A stretch of 64,000 bases of DNA. It comes from an uncultured Candidatus Saccharibacteria bacterium (lineage in GTDB: Bacteria; Patescibacteriota; Minisyncoccia; Phycocordibacterales; UBA918). The stretch spans positions 98,185-162,184 of the forward strand of contig CAZQIF010000001.1 of the NCBI GenBank assembly GCA_964593375.1, in the 5' to 3' direction. Numbering within the stretch: position 1 is the first letter of the stretch; each line of letters begins with the position of its first letter. The notes beneath the pieces are model-generated. The model worked only from the letters and a program-made list of their open reading frames with translations, was not told the origin of the DNA and ran no database searches. The translations under genes and the position numbers were made by a program. Positions 10,419 to 49,787 of this stretch are shown one piece after another.

Positions 10419-11390
10419 ATGACAAAGAAAACTACGGGAAAAAATGTGTTTCAACTGCTACCCTACATTGAAGATTTTTTGCTGTATATCCAAGCAAACA
10501 ATTATTCAGAAGAAACTTTATATAACTACGAGCGCGACTTGCTGACGTTCGATGCTTTTCTTTATGATGAAATGAGTAACCTCCCCTTCTCGAGCATAAC
10601 CAAGCGAACGGTCGAACAGTACAAAGCATATTTAAATTCTCGTGATCGAAAAACTGCTTCAGGAGACGATTCTGAACAGCGATTGAAGAGTGGGTCCATT
10701 AATCGTGCACTGACCTCACTTCGCAGGTACCTTGCGTATCTCATCGACATGGACTATGAAGCGCCCGTTGTTCCAGGTTCAATTAAACTCCTTCGTATGG
10801 AGAAGAAGCATGGTCAGGTAGCAGAACTAAATGAACTCATCGAACTCATCGAGTCACCGATGAAATTCGAAAAGGATAAGAGGGTTGCCCTTCGTAATCG
10901 AGCAGCACTTGAAACACTTTTTGCGAGTGGTATGCGTATATCAGAACTCATCAACTTAAAGCGAAACCAACTTGATAAATCTGGCCGAATTTTTATCCAA
11001 GGAAAAGGTAAGAAGCAAAGATTTATCTACCTCACTGAGCGTGCAATTAAGCACATTGGTTTCTATTTAGCAGAGCGTACGGATGACTTCCCCTACCTGT
11101 TTATTCCCGAACGAGGACTCAATGTCAAAGTCAAAAACAAACACATTTCTCCGAATTACCTGCAGATGAAAATAAAAAAATACCGTGAACTACTCGGTAT
11201 TAATGTTCCAACTAGTGCCCACTCACTGCGTCACGGTTTTGCAACATATCTCGCAGAAAAAGGTGCAAACCCTGCTGCCATCCAAATTCTCCTCGGACAT
11301 GAGTCACTTGATACCACCACGAGATACGTGCACGCTTCAGATAAGTATGCCGAGAGTACCCATAAGCAGTTCCACCCATTAAAGAAATGA
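10419..11390 (+). CDS. Tyrosine site-specific recombinase, XerC/XerD family
   Basis: The catalytic motifs RISELINL, HSLRHGFAT and LLGHESLDTTTRYVH are present, the last containing the catalytic Tyr. Confidence 0.85.
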   Translation: MTKKTTGKNVFQLLPYIEDFLLYIQANNYSEETLYNYERDLLTFDAFLYDEMSNLPFSSITKRTVEQYKAYLNSRDRKTASGDDSEQRLKSGSINRALTSLRRYLAYLIDMDYEAPVVPGSIKLLRMEKKHGQVAELNELIELIESPMKFEKDKRVALRNRAALETLFASGMRISELINLKRNQLDKSGRIFIQGKGKKQRFIYLTERAIKHIGFYLAERTDDFPYLFIPERGLNVKVKNKHISPNYLQMKIKKYRELLGINVPTSAHSLRHGFATYLAEKGANPAAIQILLGHESLDTTTRYVHASDKYAESTHKQFHPLKK

Positions 11391-12436: not shown

Positions 12437-12889
12437 TTATTTTGCGAGTTTAACAATCTGCAAGTAGTGCTTTTTTGCCACCGGTTGTACCGAGAGTCGC
12501 ATACCCTTTTGCGTCACAAGCATATCAGCAAAAAATGGATCATTTTTGAGTACTGCTAATGTGAGCGGTTGCTTAAATTTTTTTTTAAATTTGAGATCAA
12601 CAGCAACCCAGCGAGGATTATCGGTTTTTGACTTTGCATCAAAGTACCTATGCTTTTGGTCAAACTGAGTTGGGTCTGGGTAGGCACCTTTTGCAACCTC
12701 TGCAAAGCCAACAACTCCAATCACTGTGGCATTTGAATGATAGAAAAGTACCCTATCCCCTACCCGCATAGTGCGCATAAAATTACGGGCTTGGTAATTG
12801 CGCACTCCATCCCACATACCAACCCCATTTCTCTCTAACGTATCAATACCATAGACCGACGGCTCACTTTTCATTAACCAATATTGCAT
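12437..12889 (-). CDS. EVE (PUA-like) domain protein
   Basis: MQYWLMKSEP...GDRVLFYHS is the EVE-domain signature. Confidence 0.8.
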   Translation of the reverse strand: MQYWLMKSEPSVYGIDTLERNGVGMWDGVRNYQARNFMRTMRVGDRVLFYHSNATVIGVVGFAEVAKGAYPDPTQFDQKHRYFDAKSKTDNPRWVAVDLKFKKKFKQPLTLAVLKNDPFFADMLVTQKGMRLSVQPVAKKHYLQIVKLAK

Positions 12890-14191: not shown

Positions 14192-15040
14192 TTATATGTG
14201 CCCGAGCCTTTGTTCAAGAAGTACCATACTTCCATAAAGACCACCTTCATCTTTGAGTTTTGCATCTACAATAGCCGGGCATGGGAGAAAATCGCCGAGT
14301 AATGCCTTGGTATGGCGGATAATATCATCGAGAAAGATGCGTGGATCACCTATGACCATCGAACCACCGAGCACAATGACATCTGGAGACCAGTATGCAA
14401 CGGTATTTTTGAGACCGTGTGCAAGATATTTGGCAAGTTCGTCCCACACAGGGTCATCTTGTGGGATTTCAAACGGTTTTACCCCTCTCCGCTTCTCGAG
14501 CGCAGTCCCAGAAACAAGGTTTTCAAGTGTATGTGCCGTATTGTGACCAAGAAGACTACGGTCAATATCAAGTTCCTGGTGTCCGGGCTCAAAACCGACA
14601 CTTGAGACATCAAGGTGGCCGTTCACAAAGCGTGCACCACCAACTCCAGTACTCACGGTGTGGTAAGCGACAATTGAATATCCCTTCCCTGCCCCATGTA
14701 TAGCTTCACCCAGTCCAACAATCGCTGTGTCATTTTCAAGGAATACGGGCGCATTAAATCGCTTTTTGAGTGTCTCTACAAGTGGTCGTCCAACCCAATC
14801 AAGGAGCTTTTTTTCGCTCACAATCGCCGTTTTTTCATGATTTAGAGGTCCGCGAATACCACCCCCAATCGCATCGATTTTCTCTCCCCCCGCAAGGTCT
14901 TCAATTGCCTTACCAATTACTTCCATTCCTTTATCGAATTCGAGCGGTGTCTCAAACTTGATGGGCTCACCATACGACTGCAAGTCTTCGCTTCGTGCAA
15001 CACGAGTTTTTGTTCCGCCAATATCAAATAAAATGTACAT
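14192..15040 (-). CDS. ROK family sugar kinase (glucokinase-like)
   Basis: The N-terminal DIGGTKTR and a ROK-like body. Confidence 0.8.
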   Translation of the reverse strand: MYILFDIGGTKTRVARSEDLQSYGEPIKFETPLEFDKGMEVIGKAIEDLAGGEKIDAIGGGIRGPLNHEKTAIVSEKKLLDWVGRPLVETLKKRFNAPVFLENDTAIVGLGEAIHGAGKGYSIVAYHTVSTGVGGARFVNGHLDVSSVGFEPGHQELDIDRSLLGHNTAHTLENLVSGTALEKRRGVKPFEIPQDDPVWDELAKYLAHGLKNTVAYWSPDVIVLGGSMVIGDPRIFLDDIIRHTKALLGDFLPCPAIVDAKLKDEGGLYGSMVLLEQRLGHI

Positions 15041-15048
15041 GTGGTGTG

Positions 15049-16290
15049 TTATTCACTGAGTAAGCTTCTCGTGTGTGATTTGTAGAGTTCAATGCTTGGT
15101 TGGTCAAAAGCGTTCACGTCAAAGAGATGGCCGAGTATCATTACCTCAATCATAGAAACTGCCATGAGACGTCCAATTTCGTGCGGTGAAAGTGAAGGAA
15201 TAACGGTTGAATGATATGGCAACCCCTCATCAGAATATGCTTTGATAACTCCTTCACGAATGGCCTCCACAATAGTACGCGGGGATTTATTAACGAGCAT
15301 TGGCAGGTTTGCAAGAAGCCAATGGTTAGGCAATTTTTCATCACTGTTACTGAGTACGGTATATATGAAGTGTGTGTAGATTCCGCGGTTTCCTGAGAGA
15401 TAGAGTTGTGCTACTGAGTGCAAGTCGCTCGCTGAGGAAACGGTAGGTAAAATAGGATAATCAAACGGTTTTCCTTGTTTTGTTGTCTTCTTTCCGATGC
15501 TTTCTGCAAGTAGCTGTCGGTACCAGAGTGCAAATCGAGTGAGCTGACGATTGAAGGTAAAGAGGTCGAGTGTGTGCATTCCTTCTTCGGCTTTTATCAC
15601 GAGGTTAACGGCGCTTCTGATTGCGGTTGCAATTTCTTCTTGAGAATGTGCACTCTCTGCACCACGTCTGAAGGCCTGTGTATCAATGCCGAGAATCGTG
15701 AGTGGTACAATACCTACCGCACTAAAAACTGAGTAACGACCACCGATTGAATCAGGAAAATCAATCCATGTAATTTTCTTTTTCTTTGCTATTTTGGCAA
15801 GTGCGCTTTTGTCGGAGCCGATGAATACCATTCGCGAATAGACTTTCTCCCCAAACTTTTCCTCTGCTCGAGCGAGCACTTCGGTGCCGTTCGTCATCGT
15901 TTCGGTTGTCGTTCCAGACTTAGTGGTAAAGACTATCGCAATGTCACTCACATCCTTAACGGTAGAAAGAAGATGCTTATACTCACGCATGCGCTGGTCA
16001 TCAATTGAGTCAAGGACAAGAAGCGATGACGTGAGCTCTGAAGAAAGTGCACCCTGGAGTGCCTCAACACCAAGTGTTGAACCACCAATACCAATAAGCA
16101 CCACATGTCGTGCACCTATGAGGTGCGCAATCTTCTTTTTTACTTGATTCTGATAGCGAATATCACCCGCTATGCCAAGCGCAGATTCATGTTTAGCGTA
16201 GTTTGGCTTTTGGAAGCTCTCGACTAGTTTTTTTGCGTACGCGCGTGCTTTCTTTTCTAATGTTCTTTGTCGGTCTGATGCTCCTGTCAT
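15049..16290 (-). CDS. pgi: Glucose-6-phosphate isomerase
   Basis: GIGGSTLG, SKSGTTTET and GGRYS motifs are present. Confidence 0.9.
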   Translation of the reverse strand: MTGASDRQRTLEKKARAYAKKLVESFQKPNYAKHESALGIAGDIRYQNQVKKKIAHLIGARHVVLIGIGGSTLGVEALQGALSSELTSSLLVLDSIDDQRMREYKHLLSTVKDVSDIAIVFTTKSGTTTETMTNGTEVLARAEEKFGEKVYSRMVFIGSDKSALAKIAKKKKITWIDFPDSIGGRYSVFSAVGIVPLTILGIDTQAFRRGAESAHSQEEIATAIRSAVNLVIKAEEGMHTLDLFTFNRQLTRFALWYRQLLAESIGKKTTKQGKPFDYPILPTVSSASDLHSVAQLYLSGNRGIYTHFIYTVLSNSDEKLPNHWLLANLPMLVNKSPRTIVEAIREGVIKAYSDEGLPYHSTVIPSLSPHEIGRLMAVSMIEVMILGHLFDVNAFDQPSIELYKSHTRSLLSE

Positions 16291-16314
16291 ACGAATCAGA
16301 GAGTTAGGTTAGTG

Positions 16315-17064
16315 TTAAATTTGTCGTGGCGACAATTGATCAACATGGCTTGTAATGTACGCATACGCTTCATCAACAGAATCAACGAGATGCATAAGTT
16401 CCAAGTCTTCTGCGTCGATAGTCTTAAAGTCTTTCATCAGTTCCTTCTTCATGAAATTCAGCACGGGTGTCCAAAATTCTTTTCCATACAGTACGACGGG
16501 GATTTTTGATATTTTTTTTGTTTGAATGAGGGTAATCAATTCAAATAGCTCATCGAGCGTACCAAAGCCCCCTGGGAAATACACATACACTTCTGATGCA
16601 AACGAGAGCATTACCTTGCGAGAGAAGAAAAAATGAAATGTTTCAGTTTCAGTGACGTATGGATTGAGCTTTTGTTCCATGGGTAGCTCGATATTGAGTC
16701 CGACAGACTTCCCTCCGACTTTAAATGCACCGACGTTTGCCGCCTCCATGATGCCGGGGCCACCTCCGGTAATTATTGCAAAACCAGCTTTAGCAAGGCG
16801 GGCTGCAAGTTCTTCAGCAGCTTTGTATATAGGTTCACCTGGGCGCGTACGTGCGCTTCCAAAGAAGGTTGCTGCCGTGCCGTACTTGCGGAGAATTTCA
16901 AAACCATCAACAAATTCCGACATGATGCGGAAAATGCGCCATGATTGCACCGCATCATCAGTCTCGAAGAGGTCGGTAAGTACTCTGCAGTGAATATCTT
17001 TTGGGTCACCTTTCCCTTTTTTCTTCTTGGGTTTACTTTCAAAAATTTTATTTTGGCTACTCAT
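16315..17064 (-). CDS. LOG family protein (cytokinin riboside 5'-monophosphate phosphoribohydrolase-like)
   Basis: GGGPGIMEA and PGGFGTLDELFE motifs are present. Confidence 0.9.
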   Translation of the reverse strand: MSSQNKIFESKPKKKKGKGDPKDIHCRVLTDLFETDDAVQSWRIFRIMSEFVDGFEILRKYGTAATFFGSARTRPGEPIYKAAEELAARLAKAGFAIITGGGPGIMEAANVGAFKVGGKSVGLNIELPMEQKLNPYVTETETFHFFFSRKVMLSFASEVYVYFPGGFGTLDELFELITLIQTKKISKIPVVLYGKEFWTPVLNFMKKELMKDFKTIDAEDLELMHLVDSVDEAYAYITSHVDQLSPRQI

Positions 17065-17074
17065 GCGTATAGTG

Positions 17075-17190
17075 TATCATGCCAAAACATAGAAAATAGA
17101 ATATGGAATATGGAATAGTGAATATGAAAACGAGCGATTAGCTGTTAGCACCTAGCTCTTAGAGCTAATCGCTAAGTGCTAACTAACTAC
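17075..17190. repeat. Structured repeat element, copy C. It has a 7-mer tandem (aatatgg)x4 at 17099-17128 and the hairpin agcgattagctgttagcacctagctcttagagctaatcgct at 17133-17173, followed by a gctaagtgctaa word.
   Basis: Read directly. It shares words with copies A, B and D. Confidence 0.6.
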
Positions 17191-17780
17191 AACCACGGAA
17201 TCGAGAATTGCTCAAATTCAGGAACAAGTTTACGGCTATACAGAAGTCGTGAGATAACTTCAGCATGACAGAGGGCACCTGTAAGGGCATTGTGGGGTTC
17301 TGGTTCACTTTCGATGCCACAATAGTTGAGTACCGCGTCAAGATTAAGTGCTGAACGACGATGTTCGGGGTCTATTGGTGGTGTGAGTCCGTGATTTACC
17401 ATGTGCATGTAGCAAAGAGTATGGGTATCAATTGTACGATGTGCCAAATCCCATGCGATATTTTCACGGTCACACGCAGCTTTAAGATAATCACGGTCGA
17501 ATGAAACATTTTGCCCCGCAAGGGTGCGGTCACCCATATGCTGCGACCACTCGAGGAACATGCGTACAATTTCTCCTTCTGGTAACTTTTTTGGGTCTCT
17601 TGCTTCCTCCTCGGTAAAACCACAGACCGCGAGAGCCTCTTCCATTACATGGGCACCTTCCCACATGCGACATTCTTCATAAAAACGGTTTGTTGGATTA
17701 TCAAAATCAAGTGCGCCAATCGAGAGAATGGAGTGCTTTGCGTACTCGGTCCCCGAGGCTTCAATGTCTATGACTATCAT
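17187..17780 (-). CDS. DEDDh-type 3'-5' exonuclease (DnaQ/RNase T-like)
   Basis: The Exo I motif VIDIEASG is present, and HNALTGA is a likely Exo III region. Confidence 0.75.
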   Translation of the reverse strand: MIVIDIEASGTEYAKHSILSIGALDFDNPTNRFYEECRMWEGAHVMEEALAVCGFTEEEARDPKKLPEGEIVRMFLEWSQHMGDRTLAGQNVSFDRDYLKAACDRENIAWDLAHRTIDTHTLCYMHMVNHGLTPPIDPEHRRSALNLDAVLNYCGIESEPEPHNALTGALCHAEVISRLLYSRKLVPEFEQFSIPWL

Positions 17781-17916
17781 AGAGATAGCATAGCATAAAC
17801 GCGGAGGGACGCAGACAAGACGCGGATGTACGCAGAAAAGGATTTGGCTTAAATAATAATTTTTCTTATCACAAAATTGTGGAGTGCCAAATGTGCTTGC
17901 ACATTACCTACTGTGC

Positions 17917-17944
17917 TTGACATTAATCGTGAGTATGCTATGAT
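17917..17944 (+). promoter_or_regulatory. Consensus sigma70-like promoter, TTGACA-16 nt-TATGAT
   Basis: Exact -35 and near-consensus -10 hexamers were read directly. The promoter points toward 17950-18215. Confidence 0.6.
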
Positions 17945-17949
17945 ATTCG

Positions 17950-18215
17950 CGTTCAGGGACAGCAAACTCCTTGGGCAAATTTATAGAAATGTAGAGTTTG
18001 TGGTTCAGGTGTAAAAAGGAGGCTGGTATCCCCTGTAAAAACTACCTCAGCAGTTCAAGAGACCCGGAGCTAAGCATCTCCGTTTAAAGTGCCAATGTAG
18101 TACCCGGTCACCGCTGAGCTCGACTCCGCGGTGACCGGCCATCAATTCTAGTTCTAAGGACCAGTACGACCGCGCCCATTCATACCATATTCAACTGTGG
18201 TGAGGCGCGGTTTTT
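17950..18215 (+). ncRNA. Candidate stand-alone small RNA of about 265 nt. It has no ORF and contains the internal hairpin ccggtcaccgctgagctcgactccgcggtgaccgg. It ends at a terminator stem accgcgcc...ggcgcggt followed by ttttt.
   Basis: The assignment rests on a strong promoter plus a terminator and on the absence of coding potential. Its identity (6S, SRP or other) could not be confirmed. Confidence 0.35.
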
Positions 18216-18248
18216 ATATTTATATTGAAATTTTGTTACAATGTAATC

Positions 18249-18911
18249 ATGCGTGTCACTATTCATGATTCTTGGAAAAAGGTGCTTAAAGATGAATTTG
18301 AAGCTCCGTATTTTAAAACTCTTAGTGAAACTGTAAGAAATGCGTATTTAGAAAAAACTGTCTTCCCTCCTCCGAAGCTTGTCTTTAATGCATTTGAGCT
18401 CTGTCCATTTGAACAAGTAAAAGTCGTAATACTCGGACAAGACCCCTACCACGGTAAGGGTCAAGCACACGGGCTCTGCTTTTCAGTGCAAGATGGTGTG
18501 AAAATTCCTCCCTCACTTCAAAATATTTATAAGGAAATAAAAGATGATATTGGTAAAGAAATTCCTGAAACTGGTGATTTAGAAAATTGGGCTAAGCAAG
18601 GGGTGCTTTTACTTAACGCAACACTCACCGTAGAAGCCGGTCATGCAGGTTCTCACCAAGGACTCGGTTGGGAACAATTTACCGATGCGGTCATTAAGAA
18701 AATTTCTGATGAGAAGGAGCATGTCGTGTTTCTCCTCTGGGGGAAATACGCGCAAGGAAAAGAATCCCTCATTGACGCATCAAAACACCTCCTATTGAAA
18801 GCTCCCCACCCTTCCCCGTTTTCGGTACATACCGGCTTTTTCGGATGCAAACACTTTAGTAAAACAAATGCATATTTGGAGAAATACGGAATTAAAGAAA
18901 TCAGGTGGTGA
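18249..18911 (+). CDS. ung: Uracil-DNA glycosylase, family 1
   Basis: GQDPYH and HPSPFS motifs are present. The start is taken at MRVTIHDSW; the ORF itself is open from 18225. Confidence 0.9.
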   Translation: MRVTIHDSWKKVLKDEFEAPYFKTLSETVRNAYLEKTVFPPPKLVFNAFELCPFEQVKVVILGQDPYHGKGQAHGLCFSVQDGVKIPPSLQNIYKEIKDDIGKEIPETGDLENWAKQGVLLLNATLTVEAGHAGSHQGLGWEQFTDAVIKKISDEKEHVVFLLWGKYAQGKESLIDASKHLLLKAPHPSPFSVHTGFFGCKHFSKTNAYLEKYGIKEIRW

Positions 18912-18914
18912 AAA

Positions 18915-19035
18915 CTAGCACGTAGCTATTAGCACTTAGCCTCTGGATCGCTTCACTTCGTTCGCGTTGACGACCGGCGCGCGAAGCGCGCCGGTCGTTG
19001 CTAAGTGCTAAAAGCTAGGTGCTAATAGCTTATAT
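18915..19035. repeat. Structured repeat element, copy D. The outer inverted words are agctattagcacttagc / gctaagtgctaa..gctaatagct. The inner sequence is ctggatcgcttcacttcgttcgcgttgac followed by the hairpin gacgaccggcgcgcgaagcgcgccggtcgt.
   Basis: Read directly. It is homologous to the DR unit of copies A and B. Confidence 0.7.
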
Positions 19036-19659
19036 GAAAAAATTCTCTGGGAGTTCTGTATCAAAAATTTTTGTGAGAAGGAAATGTTTCTTTTCTTCGC
19101 TTTCTTTTGCTTGACGAACGGCGTCCATACTCAGCACATACCCTAGTGCAGGAGCTCCACTCACCGAATCGTACGATTTTTCCTCTCCGATTCGAATACA
19201 GCCAAGTGACTCGTAAAATACGCGATGCTTAGGGTTAATAGCAAAACAGAGGTAATCGTGTGCACTCACGAGTCCATATTGCACCGCAAGACCAAGAAGC
19301 CCGACTGATACATCAAGAACAGCAATGTGTGGGAATTCCTTAAGTGCCAATTTATTAATTGCAAACTGACATACCTCTCCAATCCGAGCACCCGTATCTC
19401 GATACACTCCAAGTTCTTCGCGGTACATTATATCCATCGGCACACCATGCATGTCAGACACTACGGAGATTGTGCCAAACAGTTGTTCATTGTGGCGCGC
19501 AATCATCGTCGTTGCTCCTGCCCTGCCTAAATATGCGCCAATGCCTTCATTGTGCGAATCATCTGGATTACGGTATCCCTCTTTAACATACACTTCATGC
19601 ACAAGTTGTAGTGAATCTTGCAAGTCATCTTCTGTGCACGCAACACTAAATTGAACCAT
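19030..19659 (-). CDS. GNAT-fold acyltransferase resembling acyl-ACP-dependent N-acyl synthases (LuxI / FeeM-like)
   Basis: EVCQFAINK can be compared with the LuxI-family E.SRFA motif. A VYVKEGYR region lies near the N-terminus. The gene is in an operon with a carrier protein and a PPTase. The assignment is tentative. Confidence 0.45.
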   Translation of the reverse strand: MVQFSVACTEDDLQDSLQLVHEVYVKEGYRNPDDSHNEGIGAYLGRAGATTMIARHNEQLFGTISVVSDMHGVPMDIMYREELGVYRDTGARIGEVCQFAINKLALKEFPHIAVLDVSVGLLGLAVQYGLVSAHDYLCFAINPKHRVFYESLGCIRIGEEKSYDSVSGAPALGYVLSMDAVRQAKESEEKKHFLLTKIFDTELPENFFI

Positions 19660-19665
19660 AAAAAA

Positions 19666-19920
19666 TTATTCAACAATTCCGTACTTTATCCGACTCACAT
19701 ACTCAATCACGTCCCTCACCGTATGCATCTTTACCACATCCTCATACGCAGTTTCAACCTCATATGCCTTCTCAAATGCAAGCAACAATTCAAAGAGCTG
19801 AATTGAATCACGAGATAGATCAGCAATAATACTCTCCTCAGTAATAGCTGAAGCATTTGCTCCAAGCGAAGTCGCCATAAGTTCTATTACTTCTTTTGCT
19901 ATTTCACTATAATTTTTCAT
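19666..19920 (-). CDS. Acyl/peptidyl carrier protein
   Basis: An 84-aa acidic four-helix-type protein. DLSRDSIQLFELL is a DSL-like phosphopantetheine attachment motif. Confidence 0.65.
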   Translation of the reverse strand: MKNYSEIAKEVIELMATSLGANASAITEESIIADLSRDSIQLFELLLAFEKAYEVETAYEDVVKMHTVRDVIEYVSRIKYGIVE

Positions 19921-20633
19921 AACACCATATTAACGAGCATGTACACGTTTTTGTATACCGCCCAGTGCACTGTTGCATTCACTCGTTCTCCTGCAATAGT
20001 GATGGTGACGTTACCATTTTCAAGATTAACCATTGTTTCTACAGTGCGTGGGTGTGTCTTAAGACCCGTACCAATAGCTTTAAGATACGCTTCCTTAAGA
20101 CTCCACCTGAGCGTTGCATCAACTTTTTGCACCGCTGGTGAAAGCGCATTATGCGTATCAATTTCATGCTGAGTCATAAATCCCTTTAGAGTTTCAGGAC
20201 GAAAATTGCGTACTCGTTCGATGTCGATACCAATACCACTCCATTCACCACGTGGCACTGCATTCGCCGCTGCAAATTCATCACAATGACTGAGCGTAAG
20301 GAGTACTCCGCTCGCGTCAAAACCTGCTTGCGTATCAAGGAGCCTACCACTTGGCGGCACTCCCTGACCTGACGCAATTTCAATACGCTCGAGCGGAATC
20401 TGCACAAACTGTGTTCTATCAAAGTGGTCGTGAAGCGCACGCTTTGCTGCAAGTCTTCCAAAAAGCCAGTCACGTTGCTTTGCGAGCGGAATGCGCTTAT
20501 ACATTTCACGCTCCGTTTCGGTACATACCGCAAATGCGCTTCGTTCATCCTCAAGTTCTTTATCAACAATTACGAGGCCAAGTGTTGAGGGTTCTGTCTT
20601 TGAGAGCATGTGCTTGTATGTCGTATATATCAT
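19917..20633 (-). CDS. 4'-phosphopantetheinyl transferase (Sfp/EntD type)
   Basis: GIDIE and WSLKEAYLKAIG motifs are present. The stop overlaps the carrier-protein start. Confidence 0.8.
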   Translation of the reverse strand: MIYTTYKHMLSKTEPSTLGLVIVDKELEDERSAFAVCTETEREMYKRIPLAKQRDWLFGRLAAKRALHDHFDRTQFVQIPLERIEIASGQGVPPSGRLLDTQAGFDASGVLLTLSHCDEFAAANAVPRGEWSGIGIDIERVRNFRPETLKGFMTQHEIDTHNALSPAVQKVDATLRWSLKEAYLKAIGTGLKTHPRTVETMVNLENGNVTITIAGERVNATVHWAVYKNVYMLVNMVL

Positions 20634-20845
20634 AGGAAGTATTTAAAATGCATAAACGAGACAATTAAAAATACACCGCTGTCGTGTATGGCCTCTATAA
20701 TACCAGAAACAACACACAACACTAAATTTTTTGATTAAGCTTTGAAGTATCAATTTAAAACACAATAACCTATATATTGTCAAAATGAACTGGTCTGGAA
20801 TTAAACAAAATCAGGCATATACCATATAATTACATAATTACTCAT

Positions 20846-21487
20846 ATGCACACCCCACCAAAAAAGCATATCCCCCTGCTCCGTTTTAAGGTTTTAGATA
20901 TCCTTTATGATCCCCTTCTTTTTGTATCGGGATTGGGTAAAGGATTTAAATCAAGAATTACTAATCTTGCGAAATTAAACGACGAACCGGCCACCATCGT
21001 TGACGTCGGGTGTGGTACAGGAACGCAACTACTGATTCTGAGAGAAAAATATCCACAAGCGAAGATTTGGGGTATTGATCCAGATTTTTCATTGATTTCA
21101 AAACTTCAGTCTTCACGAGCATTTGCAACTAAAGATATTTCATTCAATTGCGCACATGCTGAATCATTGCCGTTTGAGGAAAGTTCTATTGATGTTTGTT
21201 TTTCAACCTTGGCATTCCATCATATGAGCACCCATTCAAAACAAGAAGCATTTCGTGAAATATATCGAATTCTCAAACCCGATGGCGCTCTTGTGCTTAC
21301 TGACTGGGGTGTGTCGAGATTCCCTTTTCTTCGCTTCCTTCTCATTTTTGAGAAACAGGAGTTTCTTAATGACCACATCGTTGGACTTATACCGCACTAC
21401 GCAGAACATGCAGGGTTCACACAAATTTCTGAAACTCGTGTAAAATTTTCTGGTATCTGGACATGGGTTTTTAAAAAAAAGCTATGA
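20846..21487 (+). CDS. Class I SAM-dependent methyltransferase (Methyltransf_11-like)
   Basis: The VDVGCGTG motif is followed by a typical Rossmann-fold body. Confidence 0.8.
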   Translation: MHTPPKKHIPLLRFKVLDILYDPLLFVSGLGKGFKSRITNLAKLNDEPATIVDVGCGTGTQLLILREKYPQAKIWGIDPDFSLISKLQSSRAFATKDISFNCAHAESLPFEESSIDVCFSTLAFHHMSTHSKQEAFREIYRILKPDGALVLTDWGVSRFPFLRFLLIFEKQEFLNDHIVGLIPHYAEHAGFTQISETRVKFSGIWTWVFKKKL

Positions 21488-22227
21488 GCATGACTGCTTT
21501 ATTTCTTGTTCTTGGCATTCTTGTACTGTGTGTGGTTTGCTATGAAGCGATACGTATCGGTATCCATGCACGCAAGGCAGTTCTCGCAGGTAAGCGTGCG
21601 GTTCCCGTTTCAAAAGCACATGCAAGCCCCCACAAAAGTGTGCTCGTGATTGGAGATAGTACCTCATTTGGAACTGGTGCGCGTGAGGCAAAAAACTCTC
21701 TTGTTGGACGACTTGCGCAAGATTATCCCAATATTGCAATCACCAACGCCTCACGAAACGCAATGAACGTGCGTGAATTAAAACACACGTTGTCGAACAT
21801 ACGTGAAAATCATTTTGATATTATCATGATGCACATTGGTGGTGTTGATACGCTTTCCTTTACCTCCTCAGCACAAATTACTCATCACTTTAAGGAAATT
21901 GCTGAACATACTGTTGCGATGGGAGCGGAAGCTGTTATCCTCGTTTCTGTGAACAATGTTGGTACTGCACCATTTATCCGATTTCCTCTCAGTACACTTT
22001 TTGATTGGAGAAGCAGGAAGATGACTGAGCTTTTTAGCAAACTTTCTAACACGCACAATATGCATCATGTTCCCCTCTATGAAAAACGAGAAGATGACCC
22101 GCTTGGAAAGGAACCTGAGATATTATTCTCAGACGACAAAATTCACCCAAACGATGCTGGGTATGCAGTGTGGTATCGTATGATACAGAATGCTGTCGAC
22201 CCCTATCTATCATGCACGAATATGTAA
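21484..22227 (+). CDS. SGNH/GDSL hydrolase, membrane-anchored (paralog 1)
   Basis: An N-terminal TM segment, block I VLVIGDSTSFG and block V DKIHPNDAGY. Confidence 0.75.
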   Translation: MSMTALFLVLGILVLCVVCYEAIRIGIHARKAVLAGKRAVPVSKAHASPHKSVLVIGDSTSFGTGAREAKNSLVGRLAQDYPNIAITNASRNAMNVRELKHTLSNIRENHFDIIMMHIGGVDTLSFTSSAQITHHFKEIAEHTVAMGAEAVILVSVNNVGTAPFIRFPLSTLFDWRSRKMTELFSKLSNTHNMHHVPLYEKREDDPLGKEPEILFSDDKIHPNDAGYAVWYRMIQNAVDPYLSCTNM

Positions 22228-23039
22228 CCCTACTCATCACGTCGCTCCCCCCTCTCGATTCCTCGAGTGCAGTATTTTACGTTACAAACGTATTGATATT
22301 CATTGTAGTACTGAGGACGCTCATCATGATTCTCCACCTTCTCCTCAATAAACAGCTTGCGTTTTCAAGTAAGCCATATACGTCGACGAACGAACAGGCA
22401 AAAAAAATACTCATTCTCGGTGATAGTACTGCAGTAGGAACCGGTGCACATGCTCCCGAAGAAACTATAGCTGGGAGACTTGCGCACGATTTTCCAAATG
22501 CTCAAATTGTGAACGTAGCACAAAACGGGGGTATTATTAAAGACCTCACGAAGCAAATTGAAAAAGTTTCAGGCCAAACATTTGACATCATCATCATAAG
22601 TGCAGGAGGAAATGATGTGTGGCATTTTTCTCGACTCAAAACAATTCGCACACACCTCACGGGAGTCTTTTTACAGGCACTTACAATGAGCAATCATCGT
22701 GTCATTTTTCTTCATTACAATAGTATTGGTTCTGCACCACTCTTCCCTTTTCTCATTCAGTTCTTCCTCAAAATCGAGGAGAAGCGAATTTATAAAACCA
22801 TTCATGCAGTTGCATCAGAATTACAAGTGCCTATCATCAACCTTTTTACGGAGGAGACTGATAACCCATTTTTAAAGAATCCGAAGCATCTTTTTGCACG
22901 CGATGGTATTCATCCGAGTTCACGTGGATACGAAGTCTGGTACCACCGTATGTGGCTCGAAATGGTGCGAAATGGATACTACTCTTCAGAGAATAACAAA
23001 ATACCCAAAGATTTGTCTTCCCCGGTTCAAAACTATTAG
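22212..23039 (+). CDS. SGNH/GDSL hydrolase, membrane-anchored (paralog 2)
   Basis: ILILGDSTAVGTG and ARDGIHPSSRGY motifs are present. The ATG at 22212 overlaps the upstream stop, and the ORF is open from 22170. Confidence 0.7.
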   Translation: MHEYVTLLITSLPPLDSSSAVFYVTNVLIFIVVLRTLIMILHLLLNKQLAFSSKPYTSTNEQAKKILILGDSTAVGTGAHAPEETIAGRLAHDFPNAQIVNVAQNGGIIKDLTKQIEKVSGQTFDIIIISAGGNDVWHFSRLKTIRTHLTGVFLQALTMSNHRVIFLHYNSIGSAPLFPFLIQFFLKIEEKRIYKTIHAVASELQVPIINLFTEETDNPFLKNPKHLFARDGIHPSSRGYEVWYHRMWLEMVRNGYYSSENNKIPKDLSSPVQNY

Positions 23040-23041
23040 TA

Positions 23042-23908
23042 CTAGTCTTTTACCAAAAATCGAGCAAGTCGTATTTTGATTTGTTGGAGTGGATTTCTGT
23101 TTCCAAACGACATGCGGCCGAGCACGTATCGGTCGCGCATCACATCAAACTGGTGATAATACGGCACTGCATGAATCGTTCCTCTTTTGAGTAAAATTTT
23201 TAGTGCTTGAATTGCTACAACTCCCGCACAAAGATTAATAGCGCCAATCGAAGATGGGCCACGTTTCTCATTAAGATTTGTCCCTTTTAGGTAGCTCCGT
23301 TGAAGCATTTTTGGAAGAAGACCCACAAAAAAGGCAATGAGCTTTTCGTGGTATGACATCGAATCTTTTACGGCAAAGTAATCGTCAAAGTTTGGCCCTC
23401 CCGGCATAAAAATAAGAAACGCCGTACCAAACCCAATTGGTCCCGCAGTGACAACAGGGATATATCGCTTCAGCGATTCATTGTAGAGCATACGACGTGC
23501 GTCAACTTCAAATGCATCGAGTGCATCGACGGTAAGATGGGCATCGTGAAGAAATATATCAATATTTTCAGGGGTAATGCCCGAGTTAAATATTTCAATT
23601 TGGCAGTTTGGGTTGATTTTGAGTGCTTCCTCCTTCATTACGTGGACTTTTTCTTGCCCGAGCGTGTTCATGTTTGCTCCGTATTGTCGGTTGAAATTTT
23701 TAAGCTCAAAGACATCCAAGTCTGCAACTTTGAATTTTTCAAATCCTTGCCGTACAAGCGAAATGAGATGCGCTCCGCCGACACCACCCATACCCGGAAT
23801 TGCAATGGTAAACTCGCGGAGCTTTGCCTGCTCATCAGTTGAAAGAAGACCGATATTGCGAGAAAATGCCTCTGAATAATTAAATGGTGTTGTAGAAAGA
23901 TTAGTCAT
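23042..23908 (-). CDS. ThiF/MoeB/HesA (E1-like) family adenylyltransferase
   Basis: GMGGVGGAHL is a nucleotide-binding loop on a Rossmann-type body. There is no clear C-terminal rhodanese domain or Cys motif. Confidence 0.8.
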   Translation of the reverse strand: MTNLSTTPFNYSEAFSRNIGLLSTDEQAKLREFTIAIPGMGGVGGAHLISLVRQGFEKFKVADLDVFELKNFNRQYGANMNTLGQEKVHVMKEEALKINPNCQIEIFNSGITPENIDIFLHDAHLTVDALDAFEVDARRMLYNESLKRYIPVVTAGPIGFGTAFLIFMPGGPNFDDYFAVKDSMSYHEKLIAFFVGLLPKMLQRSYLKGTNLNEKRGPSSIGAINLCAGVVAIQALKILLKRGTIHAVPYYHQFDVMRDRYVLGRMSFGNRNPLQQIKIRLARFLVKD

Positions 23909-23917
23909 GAGGTCTTG

Positions 23918-24994
23918 TTAAGAATAGGTAATGTCTGGTTCTTTGCGGAGAGATGGAATTCGGCGCCCGGTACCAACCCCAATGCGGAACATGCACATAA
24001 GTTTTTCATTAGAGCCAACAGCGAATTTTTCATATAATGATTTTGTGCTTTTCTTAAGAAGAGTTTTTTGAGGTAGTGTGAATGCTGATGGATCCTCTTC
24101 AACATGTTCATTAAGTAGAAGGGTTGCAAAGGTTGGCTGCACGCTAAGTCCTTGCCTTGTTGCAACGAGCCACATGCGCTCTAAAATCCTCCCCGCGTGT
24201 ACACATTCAGTATGGGTACTGCTCGGAAGGATAATGCCACAGTATGCACCGGCTTGTGTGTACCTTAGTGACTCCACCAAAGCAGCGATATGTTGAATGC
24301 CGAGCGTTCCTAAAACACTTACAATCTTCCACTTGCGGAGCACGAATCGAAATAGTATGAATTTACAGAAATTGAGTTCCAGTGTTCGAACATCAAGTCC
24401 ATCTTCGGTGGTGTGCACTTCATGCGGTGTCCACCTCAGTGCTGCGAAGAATTCCTCATGGAGTTTTTGGTGTGAAAAAAGAAGCTGAACTTGTGTCATA
24501 ACAAGGTGCGCAATTTCGCGAATTGTTTTCTTATTTTCGATGAAAACAACACGCCCACTAAGCCTAAGAGTTGATGGTATTTGAGAAAGCTCATCTTTTT
24601 GTGTCAGTGAAAGAGGTTCCTTGAGATAGGGACCTCGATCTGTAATGCGGTCATACATGTACCGGTACAGATTCACACCTCGATCAACCGGGTCATACAT
24701 GAGTGTAATGGTTGCGGTATGTTTTGGGTCTTTTTTTGCTGGAAATAAAACAACTTTTGCATCATATCCAAAGTGGTCTGCTGCAATGAGCATGTTTTCA
24801 ATCACACAACCATGTGTGATGTGCTCAACAAAAGATGACCCTACAAGGATGTTTTTAGATTGTTTTTGCCCAGTTGAAAAAATTTTTACGGTGTTCCGTC
24901 TTACGACAAAACGCCATGGCTGTGTATTGTCACCCGAAGGTGCTGAGACACCTGCGCGGATAATTTCTCTAATGTCATCACGAAGCTTGCTCAT
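23918..24994 (-). CDS. Two-domain nitroreductase-family (SagB-type-like) oxidoreductase
   Basis: The N-terminus SAPSGDNTQPWRFVV is the canonical nitroreductase motif. At 358 aa it is consistent with a two-domain architecture. Confidence 0.75.
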   Translation of the reverse strand: MSKLRDDIREIIRAGVSAPSGDNTQPWRFVVRRNTVKIFSTGQKQSKNILVGSSFVEHITHGCVIENMLIAADHFGYDAKVVLFPAKKDPKHTATITLMYDPVDRGVNLYRYMYDRITDRGPYLKEPLSLTQKDELSQIPSTLRLSGRVVFIENKKTIREIAHLVMTQVQLLFSHQKLHEEFFAALRWTPHEVHTTEDGLDVRTLELNFCKFILFRFVLRKWKIVSVLGTLGIQHIAALVESLRYTQAGAYCGIILPSSTHTECVHAGRILERMWLVATRQGLSVQPTFATLLLNEHVEEDPSAFTLPQKTLLKKSTKSLYEKFAVGSNEKLMCMFRIGVGTGRRIPSLRKEPDITYS

Positions 24995-25053
24995 AGAAAA
25001 TACTCTTATCTATAGAATACCATGAGCACAGAGACGAAATTCAAGATATGCAT

Positions 25054-25488
25054 TCATATTCCTTTGCAGTTGCCTGCTGGGGTATATCCCGCCTTTTCAG
25101 CTTCTGCCTTTGAGTTGAACCATACTTTGTTTTCTTCTTTAATTTGCTTTGCTCCAACACACCACGGGAGGTGGTATTTGGTGCCGTTTTTGGATGCGAC
25201 ATACTGTGCATCTGCTACAACAGGTACACCAGACTTTTCAATATTCTTGGTAGTCGTTGCCTCATTTGTACCCTCATTAAAAACGTCCGTTACTTGAGAC
25301 AGAGGAATAGAAGCAGTGGTTTCATTTGTACTGTTTTTTGGCCCAAAATCGGCCACAGAGGCCCTCCCAAGGCCAAAAGATGCAACTCCAACGAGTACGA
25401 GCAAAATGGCCAAAAAAACGTCTTTGTCTGCAAAAAACCGCTTGATATTTATGATTATCTCTTGTATACTCACGCGGTCATTATACAC
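25054..25488 (-). CDS. Membrane-anchored protein with a C-terminal Cys-containing domain (YHLPWC...[10 protein letters not shown])
   Basis: A TM anchor, a Thr/Asn-rich linker and a conserved-looking Cys/His C-terminal module. Confidence 0.4.
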
Positions 25489-25535
25489 GAGCTCAAGCGG
25501 ATTTTACGAGTGGGCTAACAGCAAAAATAGTAACC

Positions 25536-25814
25536 ATGGCAACCAAAAAAGCTGGAGGTTCAGCTAAAAACCTACGAGACTCAAACCCAAAATACTTGGG
25601 TGTTAAGCGATCTGATGGTCAGACGGTTAAACTCGGTGAAATCATTGTGCGACAACGGGGTACAAAAATTAAGCCTGGAAAAAACGTATCTGCAGGAGTT
25701 GACCATACACTCTATGCTGCTAAGGCTGGAAAGGTATCTTTCAAGAACGTTAAGAAACTCGGCTTTGATGGAGAAACAAAGATGAAGAAGATTGTACACG
25801 TAGTAACCAAGTAA
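25536..25814 (+). CDS. rpmA: 50S ribosomal protein L27
   Basis: [23 protein letters not shown]...[10 protein letters not shown] matches L27. Confidence 0.95.
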
Positions 25815-47314: not shown

Positions 47315-48577
47315 CTAATTATCCGTTTCTGTTCTGTCTTTCCAGAGATACACGCGGTCATTTTCGCGGACACGACTTGTGACGGGAATGGTTATGATAT
47401 CCCCTTTCTTTGCCTCAGTCACCGGAATCCTATCCACATTGCGAAGTTCAGTAACCGTTGCTGAGTACACTCCCGTGGTCCGTCCAATAATTTTAATCTC
47501 GTCGCCAACTGCAATATCACCCGCATCGAGAAGAATTTCTGCAACACCTGCTTTCACAAAATATGATTGCACCACACCGAGTGCAAATTTTTCTTTGGCC
47601 GCCTTAGAACCTTTCACGTCGCTGTATGCATCTATTTCTTGTCCAAGATAGTAGTTACCGTGCGAAAGTGTGCGGTTGTATACGGTTTTGAGTGATTCAT
47701 AGTACCCCTCAATTTTTTCTTTTGTGTACGTGCCATTTTGCACGTCGAGGAGTGCATGTTTGTATGCTCGGGTCACAACCTCAACATACTCTGGCGCACG
47801 TCCACGTCCTTCGATTTTAAATACCTGTACACCTGCATCGAGAAGCTCGGGTATCTTATCAATCATGCAAATATCAGCGGCACTGAGCACATACTGATTG
47901 TCGACAACAAGCTCTTGCCCCGTTTCTAAATCGGTTACCTTGTATGCGCGTCTACAATTCTGCCTGCATGCCCCACGGTTTGCGGAAGAATTGTCGGTAT
48001 AGAGACTCATGAGACAGCGCCCTGATTGTGCGATGCAGAGTGCACCGTGCACAAAAGCTTCAATCTCCATGAGTCGTCCTTCATTTCCCATGAGATTTTC
48101 TTCACGAATTTTGAGTCCAATATCCTTGATTTGGTTCAGGGTAAGTTCACGAGCGAGCACAACGCGGTTCGTGAGATTTGCAAAGAATTTGACCGACTCA
48201 TAGTTTGAGACAGAAAACTGTACCGAAATATGCACCGGCATTTTTATTTCATTGCAGTACTGCACCGTTGCAAAATCAAAGGCAATGATAGCGTCGACAT
48301 TATTCTCTTTTGCAGCGTCAACGATTTTTCGCATGAGCTTTGTGTCATGGTCGTAGAGGAGTGTGTTCACCACAAGGTACGCTTTCACCTTATGTTCGTG
48401 GCAAATATCAGCGACTTCTTTAATGTCCGCAAGTGTCATGTTGTCTGCGGCACGAGCACGCATATTGAGCTGTGTGACACCAAAGTAAATACTTCCGCAT
48501 CCTGCCTGAATAGCGGCCATGAGACTATCAAAACTCCCTGCAGGGGACATTATTTCAGCTTCTTCTGGTTTCACCAT
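47315..48577 (-). CDS. Peptidase U32 family protein (RlhA/TrhP-like RNA hydroxylation family)
   Basis: EAFVHGALCIAQSGRCLMS and a U32 body of about 420 aa. Confidence 0.85.
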   Translation of the reverse strand: MVKPEEAEIMSPAGSFDSLMAAIQAGCGSIYFGVTQLNMRARAADNMTLADIKEVADICHEHKVKAYLVVNTLLYDHDTKLMRKIVDAAKENNVDAIIAFDFATVQYCNEIKMPVHISVQFSVSNYESVKFFANLTNRVVLARELTLNQIKDIGLKIREENLMGNEGRLMEIEAFVHGALCIAQSGRCLMSLYTDNSSANRGACRQNCRRAYKVTDLETGQELVVDNQYVLSAADICMIDKIPELLDAGVQVFKIEGRGRAPEYVEVVTRAYKHALLDVQNGTYTKEKIEGYYESLKTVYNRTLSHGNYYLGQEIDAYSDVKGSKAAKEKFALGVVQSYFVKAGVAEILLDAGDIAVGDEIKIIGRTTGVYSATVTELRNVDRIPVTEAKKGDIITIPVTSRVRENDRVYLWKDRTETDN

Positions 48578-48628: not shown

Positions 48629-49243
48629 TTACCCATAAAACTCAATCATGCGGTTTACCTTATCTTCAATACTCATCAGAGGGCCGAGACATTCACTGTA
48701 CTCGAGGGTTGCAGAGGCATTCTTCCAAAAATGAAACTTGTGTTTTGCATTGAGACCCGTAAGTCGCACGAGCACAATCGGGACATTCTCTGAAAAAAGA
48801 ACTTTGGCTCCCCGTTCAAAGTCGGCAACCATATCGGAATCACGCACGATCTTCCCTTCTGGAAAAAGGAGAATCGTATATCCCTGCCGAAGAAAGTCTC
48901 GTGTGAGGAGAAGACGTTGCATGCGCTCCATGACGGTATTTCCAATATTGTATCCACCAAAGAGCCGGATGAAAAATCCGAGTATGGGGCGTTCCATGTA
49001 GTCGGGTGTCACCGGATAACGGACAGGAACCACATTCGTCCAGTTTCGTATCCCGATGTGGTACGTAATGAGAAATGGGTCAATCTTGCTCTGGTGGTTC
49101 GCCACAATGAACGTACCATGTGTTATGCGTAGACCATCTGGACGTTTAACGGTAATCCGGAGAAGTCGCGTCAGCACAAAATTGACCGGTATGGTCATGT
49201 ACTGAATTGCAACAAACCAGCCCTTCATGAGAATCTTTTGCAT
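48629..49243 (-). CDS. plsC: 1-acyl-sn-glycerol-3-phosphate acyltransferase (PlsC/LPLAT family)
   Basis: NHQSKID matches HxxxxD, and FPEG is present. The ORF is open to 49276. Confidence 0.8.
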   Translation of the reverse strand: MQKILMKGWFVAIQYMTIPVNFVLTRLLRITVKRPDGLRITHGTFIVANHQSKIDPFLITYHIGIRNWTNVVPVRYPVTPDYMERPILGFFIRLFGGYNIGNTVMERMQRLLLTRDFLRQGYTILLFPEGKIVRDSDMVADFERGAKVLFSENVPIVLVRLTGLNAKHKFHFWKNASATLEYSECLGPLMSIEDKVNRMIEFYG

Positions 49244-49304
49244 GGTTAATTGATAGCCAGTATAACACGCCATCAAAGCCCTTACTGATACTGTGTTTTA
49301 GTGT

Positions 49305-49787
49305 CTAGAGCAGTTGCCCAATAATCACCACATAGTTTTTGCCATACTTCTTCGCACATTTTGGACAAGTGGTATACCACATGAACATTTTTTTGACCGC
49401 CATTCCCTTCTCAGTGGTGAAGCGTTCAAAATCTTCCATCCATTTTCCGGTGTCTTTGAAATTGCCTTCATACACCTTACTAAAGAAGTTGCCACTCATG
49501 ACGACGTTTTCAGCATCTTCAACTTTGGTATCAACAGATATGTACAAATCCATATTCCACTTAGAAGTATGGTCTGAAAGCCACATAGCGTCCGCACCCA
49601 CAGTGCCCGTTTTTTCAATTTTTTCCTGACAACGCTTCATAACCCCGCCAAAGTTAACGGGCATATAGAAAAGCGTAAAGACTTTGTCTTTGATAAATTT
49701 CTTGTTGTTCCACGTAAATGTTTTATTGTCCCATGGTGCTGGATCAAATTTTAAGCAACATACTTCTTCTTTTTGTAGTGTTTCCAT
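49305..49787 (-). CDS. Hypothetical protein (160 aa)
   Basis: The ORF has a conserved-looking C-terminal CPKCAKKYG. I recognise no family. Confidence 0.4.
   Translation of the reverse strand: METLQKEEVCCLKFDPAPWDNKTFTWNNKKFIKDKVFTLFYMPVNFGGVMKRCQEKIEKTGTVGADAMWLSDHTSKWNMDLYISVDTKVEDAENVVMSGNFFSKVYEGNFKDTGKWMEDFERFTTEKGMAVKKMFMWYTTCPKCAKKYGKNYVVIIGQLL

Follow-up and report, generated by a model that had tools for sequence, protein, structure and literature searches.

Three enzymes define the TyzABC (PMC10404671), OxzAB (bioRxiv 10.1101/2020.06.11.147165), and NasY (PMC12479983) clusters: an N-acyltransferase with the FeeM fold, a desaturase of the FDO type, and a ThiF cyclase. TyzABC of Mycobacterium tuberculosis makes C12:0-tyrazolone (PMC10404671), and OxzAB of Pseudoalteromonas rubra, reported only from alpha-, beta-, and gammaproteobacteria, combines N-acyltransferase, ThiF, and nitroreductase activities to yield 2-alkyl-4-arylidene oxazolones from N-acyl Tyr or N-acyl Phe (bioRxiv 10.1101/2020.06.11.147165). 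Clusters in which NasY is accompanied by ThiF and nitroreductase genes, with a methyltransferase in some cases, have been proposed for N-acyl-2,3-dehydrotyrosines (stieleriacines, thalassotalic acids, and kyonggic acids; PMC12479983). The locus described herein lies in a stretch of 64,000 nucleotides (hereafter the window) from an uncultured Candidatus Saccharibacteria bacterium (GenBank assembly GCA_964593375.1, contig CAZQIF010000001.1, positions 98,185 to 162,184), in which three minus-strand genes at 19030-20633 encode an Sfp-type 4'-phosphopantetheinyl transferase (PPTase), an acyl carrier protein (ACP), and a protein assigned to the FeeM family. This trio is probably the acyl-transfer front end of a conserved lipid-metabolite cluster of Patescibacteria that is related to the Oxz, Tyz, and NasY pathways.

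A first-pass annotation, made from the sequence alone, had pointed to the trio and had its layout right. The open reading frame (ORF) listing gives products of 238, 84, and 209 aa at those coordinates; GIDIE and WSLKEAYLKAIG are present in the PPTase, DLSRDSIQLF in the ACP, and EVCQFAIN and VYVKEGYR in the 209-aa protein; and, in keeping with its mention of overlapping or adjacent stops and starts, the PPTase stop and the ACP start share an ATGA, with the ACP stop 6 nt from the start of the FeeM-type gene. The profile, a direct match to the sequence in the FeeM crystal structure, and the predicted fold likewise bore out the resemblance of the 209-aa protein to FeeM. The protein matches Pfam PF21926 (FeeM) with E=1.8e-26 and 93.3 bits (cutoff 27) over profile positions 3-156 of 158, which is the only Pfam family reported for it at E<=1, and a phmmer comparison with PDB entry 2G0B (FeeM) gives E=2.1e-21 over residues 18-177. 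When an AlphaFold2 model built with nine homologs (predicted local distance difference test 86, predicted TM-score 0.86) was compared with the PDB by Foldseek, six FeeM chains ranked first (E=8e-16 to 5e-14, TM 0.66-0.88, 30-32% identity; for the top match to 2G0B at E=8e-16, TM 0.76-0.88 and root-mean-square deviation 2.0-2.8 A), followed by generic GNAT acetyltransferases at approximately 1e-7, while the N-acyl homoserine lactone (AHL) synthase BjaI ranked 19th at E=2.3e-6. Glu95 of the EVCQFA motif is aligned to the Glu of FeeM EVVQFA and is invariant in the nine closest homologs; in FeeM, Glu95 is the proposed catalytic residue, and the equivalent Glu-to-Ala mutant of a homolog is inactive (PMC4897644). 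His145 and Phe148 of NPKHxxFY, which are invariant in the same homologs, are aligned to FeeM NPKHDTFY, a matching that rests on the sole H-x-x-F in the region, as the PDB chain index is 1-2 residues off the published numbering; FeeM His145 and Phe148 have been implicated in binding of the carrier protein and its 4'-phosphopantetheine (Ppant) arm (PMC11685415). Because of the profile, the sequence match to 2G0B, the fold ranking, and the aligned invariant residues Glu95, His145, and Phe148, the 209-aa protein is assigned, from sequence and model, to the FeeM family as a carrier-protein-type N-acyl amino acid synthase and not as a LuxI, HlyC, or OlsB enzyme.

The latter three assignments were each tried and rejected. 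For LuxI, there is no PF00765 (Autoind_synth) match at E<=1, and BjaI stands roughly ten orders of magnitude below FeeM in the fold search; for HlyC and the toxin-activating acyltransferases, Pfam gives no match, and the 50 best fold matches include no structure of the HlyC/ApxC type; and for OlsB, there is no PF13444 match at E<=1. The comparison with LuxI, FeeM, and HlyC by structure prediction, suggested along with the first-pass annotation, therewith comes out in favor of FeeM, and the AHL-like product that had been offered as an alternative to an N-acyl amino acid is not supported. The protein was also not placed in an unrelated GNAT family, nor does its carrier lack the conserved serine. 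The 84-aa ACP matches PF00550 (PP-binding; E=3.5e-8, 34 bits, cutoff 20.8), and its attachment residue Ser39, which corresponds in the alignment to Ser36 of E. coli AcpP, lies at the beginning of helix II in a DSIQLFELL motif that does not vary among 12 loci. Among NCBIfam ACP models its best match (E=2.5e-14) is under all AcpP equivalog cutoffs, and because it scores under every one of them, the protein reads as a specialized ACP and not as the AcpP of fatty acid synthesis (FAS). The PPTase matches PF01648 (ACPS) in two stretches (E=1.1e-17, 64.5 bits, cutoff 25) and TIGR00556 (52.5 bits, cutoff 45.35), and only weakly 4PPT_N (E=0.018); its Sfp-type call is upheld by a length of approximately 230 aa in two halves and by its GIDIE and WSLKEAYLK motifs, which are conserved in 11 loci as GxD(I/M)E and WxxKE(A/S)xxK. 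Gene callers place the PPTase start eight codons later, at approximately 20609, giving 230 aa. As the Pfam matches of all three proteins exceed their gathering scores (PF01648, PF00550, and PF21926) and the PPTase-ACP-FeeM order is repeated in 11 of 12 distinct annotated loci (several of them on truncated contigs) at FeeM identities of 35-67%, the arrangement is more than chance, and PPTase-ACP-FeeM constitutes the fixed core of the related loci.

The trio is, nonetheless, not the self-contained operon for which it was first taken: it comes without an acyl-loading enzyme and appears to form the front end of a conserved cluster of greater extent, with ThiF, FDO, methyltransferase, two GDSL, and PlsC-like genes. 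Apart from the last, these genes occupy a compact 6-kb block (19030-24994) with no unrelated genes between them, in which FeeM-type, ThiF-type, and FDO genes all occur, as in the Oxz, Tyz, and NasY clusters; the pattern is repeated in CPR loci (candidate phyla radiation, i.e., Patescibacteria) and in a DPANN locus. The ThiF-type protein reaches 358 bits against NF006077 (PRK08223; cutoff 266) and, on two fusion models, falls on the ThiF portion: PRK14851 (ThiF-FDO; positions 22-298, E=1.2e-91) and PRK14852 (positions 311-586, E=3.3e-76). The FDO protein matches the NF005901 Rv1355c family with residues 5-352 on positions 374-713 of 722, i.e., the FDO half (E=2.1e-44), PRK14851 at positions 329-671 of 679 (E=4.2e-47), the NF047509 Acg family (E=2.4e-34), and the PDB Acg structure 2YMV (E=5e-6), and no SagB-type NCBIfam model was matched by it; it is accordingly similar, by profile scores, to both the FDO-A-type Rv1355c family (E=2e-44) and the FDO-B-type Acg (E=2e-34). 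The window FeeM, ThiF, and FDO proteins are collinear on the 989-aa fusion model PRK14852 (positions 32-199, 311-586, and 617-745, respectively), and because they map in order onto this single model, a fusion-type argument suggests that the three enzymes act together.

When the locus is set beside described systems, FeeL/FeeM of the soil environmental DNA fee cluster (2G0B) is the counterpart of the trio: the family and fold are the same, the catalytic Glu and the carrier/Ppant-binding His and Phe are kept, and in both the synthase has an ACP of its own. The identity is only approximately 30%, however, and the window differs in adding an Sfp-type PPTase in the same operon, in its ThiF, FDO, methyltransferase, and GDSL neighbors, and in its Patescibacterium host with no FAS seen in the window. 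TyzABC and TrzAS/Rv1355c-Rv1356c (PMC12856293) comprise the same three clustered enzyme types, and in tyz as in the window the acyltransferase and the FDO-ThiF pair are on different transcription units; nevertheless, TyzA is a 322-aa user of acyl-CoA with neither an ACP nor a PPTase in the cluster description (PMC10404671), whereas the window adds both of these, a methyltransferase, and two GDSL hydrolases. With regard to OxzAB, the window ThiF and FDO proteins match ThiF-FDO fusion models end to end, but OxzB is a single ThiF-nitroreductase fusion and OxzA uses acyl-CoA, whereas the window genes are separate and the donor is presumably acyl-ACP. [quoted passage not shown] NasY clusters differ in coming from Pseudomonadota, Actinomycetota, and Planctomycetota and in that their description makes no mention of PPTase, GDSL, or PlsC-like genes, a carrier protein figuring only as the presumed acyl-ACP donor from primary metabolism (PMC12479983). 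Lastly, OlsB/OlsA and E. coli Aas share a common logic with the window, in which an acyl-ACP-dependent N-acyltransferase is combined with a PlsC-family O-acyltransferase, the window PlsC-like protein resembling the Aas acyltransferase domain; by comparison, the window N-acyltransferase is of the FeeM family, an acyl-ACP synthetase domain is absent, and the PlsC-like gene is unlinked. Judged from its sequence, the block may thus be likened to the Oxz, Tyz, and NasY systems and is set apart from them by its private ACP and PPTase, its GDSL hydrolases, its PlsC-like partner, and its host lineage; neither a PPTase nor a carrier protein encoded in the cluster figures in any of the consulted descriptions of those systems. 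A literature search of incomplete coverage turned up no published account of the cluster in Patescibacteria, nor one of oxazolone or N-acyl amino acid genes in these bacteria.

The close FeeM subfamily is small, numbering 34 proteins among 5.8 billion in a profile search with a word-based prefilter; an exhaustive search among 1.84 billion gave 110 representative clusters at E<=1e-30 and, for the wider family, 3,623 at E<=1e-3, and scans for further loci returned two from metagenomes and three from genomes. The genomes with this subfamily are metagenome-assembled genomes of Patescibacteria (Nomurabacteria, Kaiserbacteria, and Paceibacterota), and the remaining related loci are on metagenome contigs; the complete Kaiserbacteria genome CP064968 carries the cluster. 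Across the 12 loci, the ACP is universal (12/12) and the PPTase nearly so (11/12); a PlsC-like acyltransferase lies within the locus, beside PPTase-ACP-FeeM, in 10, ThiF and GDSL genes occur in nine each, a MacB-type ABC exporter in approximately eight, FDO and a VTT/DedA-like membrane protein in five each, and a methyltransferase in four. The methyltransferase gene is kept beside the cluster in loci L002, L003, and L018, and paired GDSL genes are retained in most related loci. The DPANN archaeal locus (L013/L014, 9002-11928), which adjoins RNA polymerase Rpb2/Rpb5 genes, has a 298-aa FeeM gene divergent from a ThiF gene (60% identity to the window ThiF) that is followed by an FDO homolog (E=5e-58), with no ACP; this sequence comparison suggests that the pathway may be common to ultra-small bacteria and archaea. 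Approximately 4 kb away, the same archaeal locus contains another FeeM/Autoind_synth-like gene together with an AMP-binding enzyme, and in L008 (9305-10621) two tandem FeeM-family paralogs have the PlsC-like gene on one side and the PPTase-ACP pair on the other.

In the scheme that is favored for the cluster, the reactions, the order in which they occur, and the substrate are all inferred, in distinction from the gene identities, motifs, fold, and synteny, which were shown. Going by its family, the PPTase would convert the ACP to its holo form at Ser39, after which a fatty acyl chain would be loaded onto the carrier by an enzyme that was not found in the window (GDSL, PlsC-like, and ThiF enzymes are candidates as ACP loaders). 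The FeeM-type synthase, again to judge by its family, would then use acyl-ACP to acylate the alpha-amino group of a probably aromatic amino acid, with an N-acyl amino acid as the product. From genomic context and by analogy with Oxz, Tyz, and NasY, the FDO flavoenzyme may introduce an alpha,beta-desaturation into this product; the ThiF-type enzyme may adenylate its carboxylate and cyclize it to an acyl-oxazolone, which could be hydrolyzed to an N-acyl-dehydro-amino acid; and the UbiE-like methyltransferase may tailor the result. The membrane-anchored GDSL pair and the PlsC-like acyltransferase would most likely deal with the acyl chains of scavenged lipids, which they would release or transfer, and the MacB-type ABC system beside the FeeM gene in most relatives makes export of the product probable.

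Several points weigh against placing the cluster with these pathways. The likeness to the Tyz and Oxz proteins rests on NCBIfam family models and published descriptions, and the matches to the NCBIfam fusion models are under their full-length cutoffs, as expected of single-domain proteins. The cluster, moreover, would comprise three transcription units instead of one operon, going by gene spacing only: a plus-strand unit of three genes (methyltransferase, GDSL 1, and GDSL 2) runs divergently from the trio, and the minus-strand FDO-ThiF pair is convergent on that unit. Among the scanned window ORFs of at least 120 aa, there is neither an AMP-binding acyl-ACP synthetase nor any FAS gene, the latter in line with the first-pass annotation. 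OxzA and TyzA use acyl-CoA in vitro, without a dedicated ACP (bioRxiv 10.1101/2020.06.11.147165; PMC10404671), and the Oxz/Tyz precedent offers no account of what the GDSL and PlsC-like enzymes do. FDO is found in fewer than half of the related loci, a count in which the truncated contigs have to be borne in mind. Finally, the link between ThiF and FeeM is not obligatory, since ThiF genes occur without FeeM in some CPR genomes (L011 and L015). Both have ThiF genes of the same subfamily (64-68% identity), with no FeeM, ACP, or FDO gene nearby in either case: that of L011 (10001-10855, Kaiserbacteria CP060228) stands alone, and that of L015 (10001-15222) is accompanied by a single GDSL gene and by a MacB ABC system. 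As for the donor, the conserved ACP and PPTase and the FeeM carrier-binding residues argue, at the level of sequence, for acyl-ACP in place of the acyl-CoA used by OxzA and TyzA.

[quoted passage not shown] A PlsC-like gene beside PPTase-ACP-FeeM is commoner than FDO (10 loci as opposed to five), the window PlsC-like protein keeps its HX4D motif and matches the acyltransferase domain of the acyl-ACP-dependent Aas (acyl-[ACP]--phospholipid O-acyltransferase; E=8.4e-11), and both GDSL enzymes are membrane-anchored. This explanation is also in accord with three reports according to which Patescibacteria are without lipid synthesis, are enriched in lysolipids, and have no mechanism of lipid uptake or processing that has been identified (PMC11665869; PMC7242380; PMC12455944). 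Conversely, the N-acyltransferase matches FeeM and not the OlsB family, the window PlsC-like gene lies at a distance of 29 kb, with ThiF and FDO inside the block, the FeeM-ThiF-FDO fusion family and the characterized pathways tie FeeM to ThiF and FDO, and no source is visible for the 3-hydroxyacyl chain that an OlsA-type second acylation requires. Salvage of lipids and production of a metabolite are not mutually exclusive. A broader proposal, which is decidedly speculative, would make the locus, in an organism lacking FAS and acyl-ACP synthetase alike, a lipid-harvesting hub in which the GDSL enzymes, a PlsC-like enzyme running in reverse (transacylation), or ThiF load acyl chains of host glycerolipids onto the private ACP and leave lysolipids behind, the resulting acyl-ACP feeding both re-acylation of the membrane and an exported oxazolone derived from an N-acyl amino acid that acts in the interaction between episymbiont and host.

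It is very improbable that the ThiF-type enzyme is not a cyclase but the acyl loader itself, which would adenylate a free fatty acid and pass it to the Ppant thiol of holo-ACP by an E1-like logic. Such a role would fit the lack of acyl-ACP synthetase and FAS genes among the scanned window ORFs, the more frequent linkage of ThiF than of FDO to PPTase-ACP-FeeM (nine loci versus five), and ThiF-family chemistry, in which, according to a review, a carboxylate is adenylated and then attacked by a thiol or other nucleophile (PMC12596934). Against it stand the strong matches to the ThiF domains of fusion families (E=3e-76 and 1e-91), whose characterized members cyclize N-acyl amino acids, and the DPANN locus, which has ThiF and FDO without any ACP. 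We know of no ThiF-family enzyme that activates fatty acids. FeeM and LuxI share a common fold and both use acyl-ACP, and BjaI is among the fold matches (E of approximately 2e-6), but a LuxI-like, AHL-type quorum-sensing synthase with its own ACP is effectively excluded, its probability being slight in view of the missing PF00765 match, the margin by which FeeM leads the fold search, the absence of a LuxR-type regulator within the block, and a ThiF/FDO context that is not related to S-adenosylmethionine (SAM). Effectively excluded too, and least credible of all, is a housekeeping AcpS/AcpP remnant of fatty acid synthesis standing by chance beside an unrelated GNAT acetyltransferase, for although ACP and PPTase genes are common housekeeping genes, this PPTase is Sfp-type (approximately 230 aa) and not AcpS, the ACP is under the AcpP equivalog cutoffs, the trio stays together across the related loci, and the GNAT protein is specifically of the FeeM family with no FAS genes nearby.

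The features of the cluster and of its relatives that bear coordinates are collected below.

Table. Positions of cluster features in the window and of two membrane systems in related loci.
Feature	Sequence	Position	Strand	Basis
FeeM-family N-acyl amino acid synthase, 209 aa; predicted carrier-protein-dependent GNAT-fold N-acyltransferase	window	19030..19659	-	Pfam, phmmer, AF2/Foldseek, motifs
Dedicated ACP, 84 aa, attachment Ser39	window	19666..19920	-	PF00550, NCBIfam, motif alignment
Sfp-type PPTase, 238 aa	window	19917..20633	-	PF01648, TIGR00556, motifs
AT-rich divergent intergenic region between PPTase operon and methyltransferase operon	window	20634..20845		position from flanking ORFs
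Class I SAM-dependent methyltransferase, UbiE-like, 213 aa	window	20846..21487	+	PF08241 E=4.8e-22; PF01209 Ubie_methyltran E=1.2e-11
GDSL/SGNH hydrolase 1, 247 aa, N-terminal membrane anchor	window	21484..22227	+	PF13472 E=4e-14
GDSL/SGNH hydrolase 2, ORF 289 aa, membrane anchor	window	22170..23039	+	PF13472 E=1.5e-16
ThiF-type ATP-dependent adenylase, 288 aa; predicted TyzB/OxzB-like cyclase	window	23042..23908	-	PF00899 E=1.1e-39; GMGGVG loop
FDO-type flavoenzyme, nitroreductase superfamily, 358 aa; predicted TyzC-like N-acyl amino acid desaturase	window	23918..24994	-	NCBIfam, PDB
PlsC-like (LPLAT) acyltransferase, 29 kb from trio	window	48629..49276	-	PF01553 E=1.8e-12; HX4D (HQSKID)
MacB system	L005	6408-9880		
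MacB system	L007	4859-8372		
MacB system	L008	11578-15018		
MacB system	L010	4189-7723		
MacB systems, duplicated	L017	2420-5981 and 9300-12739		
MacB systems, duplicated	L018	10627-17749		
VTT/DedA-like membrane protein	L004	4144-4758		
VTT/DedA-like membrane protein	L006	3321-3920		
VTT/DedA-like membrane protein	L007	10467-11087		
VTT/DedA-like membrane protein	L009	3306-3935		
VTT/DedA-like membrane protein	L018	7138-7731		

The divergent intergenic region is the presumed bidirectional promoter region of the block; promoter-like hexamers occur in it at 20802-20830 (plus strand, 10/12) and 20753-20726 (minus strand, 9/12), their number being no higher than in shuffles, and promoter and terminator scans of 18800-25700 gave sites no more numerous than in shuffled sequence. 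Scans for Rfam families and tRNAs returned nothing in or near the cluster. Both hydrolases keep their GDS and DxxH blocks intact. GDSL 1 carries its motifs as GDS at residue 57 and DKIH at residue 218, with a hydrophobic segment at residues 1-19, and GDSL 2 as GDS at residue 84 and DGIH at residue 245, with a hydrophobic segment at residues 29-47; translation of GDSL 2 probably begins at the ATG at 22212, which makes the protein 275 aa long, and the L002 ortholog has 273 aa. Directly upstream of the FDO gene lies a minus-strand ORF of 144 aa (25054-25488) with an N-terminal hydrophobic segment and a weakly Ada_Zn_binding-like C-terminus, which occupies the same position in L002 (65% identity) and could belong to the cluster. 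The window PlsC-like protein, an ortholog of the one encoded beside PPTase-ACP-FeeM in 10 of the 12 loci, is 58.6% identical to that of L004 by BLASTP; its gene is preceded by a U32-peptidase/TrhP-like gene (47315-48577) and forms, with the gene of a 160-aa PF20603 "bacterial hydrolase" protein (E=1e-63) that comes after it, a minus-strand pair at 48629-49787. The block has a GC content of 0.42-0.43 against approximately 0.44 in the window, i.e., no compositional sign of recent horizontal acquisition. On its flank, window 14192-18911 (genes for UDG, an RNase T-like exonuclease, a LOG/lysine-decarboxylase-like protein, and a ROK kinase) is syntenic with L003 2612-6680 at 72-83% identity, which indicates a stable chromosomal position of the cluster and not a mobile island. 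Elsewhere in the window, and unrelated to the cluster, are a tyrosine recombinase/integrase (10419-11390, plus strand), an EVE-domain protein (12437-12889, minus strand), and an 802-aa protein (50162-52570, minus strand) that matches repeat-bearing surface-protein models and has a SleB-like C-terminus.

Among the relatives, the MacB-type tripartite ABC system (ABC_tran, FtsX, and membrane-fusion protein) is directly convergent on the FeeM gene in most cases; no such system was seen near the cluster in the window. A membrane protein of approximately 200 aa with weak similarity to VTT/DedA domains (E=8e-5 to 1e-3) comes after ThiF in five loci, whereas the window has none; the DedA family has been linked to lipid flipping. 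In L004 (1-3129), L009 (1-2283), and L016 (2069-5773), an aldehyde dehydrogenase, a protein of 381-385 aa, and an NAD_binding_4 (fatty acyl reductase-like) gene flank ThiF in place of FDO, and this set may be an alternative tailoring or acyl-activation module. The 381-385-aa protein has no Pfam match and carries an SGGKDS PP-loop motif and CxxC pairs; its candidacy as a divergent FDO was rejected, as there was no hmmsearch cross-match and the hhalign probability was 2%.

Patescibacteria have been described as unable to make lipids, and their mechanisms of lipid uptake and processing as unidentified (PMC11665869; PMC12455944); they are also reported to be enriched in lysolipids (PMC7242380). 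In this setting, the cluster is a concrete, clonable gene set with which to ask whether such cells build acylated signaling or membrane molecules from scavenged fatty acids, and it also bears on how an ACP comes to be charged without FAS; its interest lies in the host lineage and in this question of carrier loading. Were the locus to act as a lipid-harvesting hub, it would represent a new route to acyl-ACP and provide a first genetic handle on the processing of host lipids by Patescibacteria and, via the related locus, by DPANN archaea. If the cluster is, as is probable, a relative of the Oxz, Tyz, and NasY systems, the acyl-oxazolone/N-acyl-dehydro-amino-acid pathway, so far reported from Pseudomonadota, Actinomycetota, and Planctomycetota (PMC12479983), would be extended to Patescibacteria and DPANN archaea and would gain a carrier-protein-dependent version.

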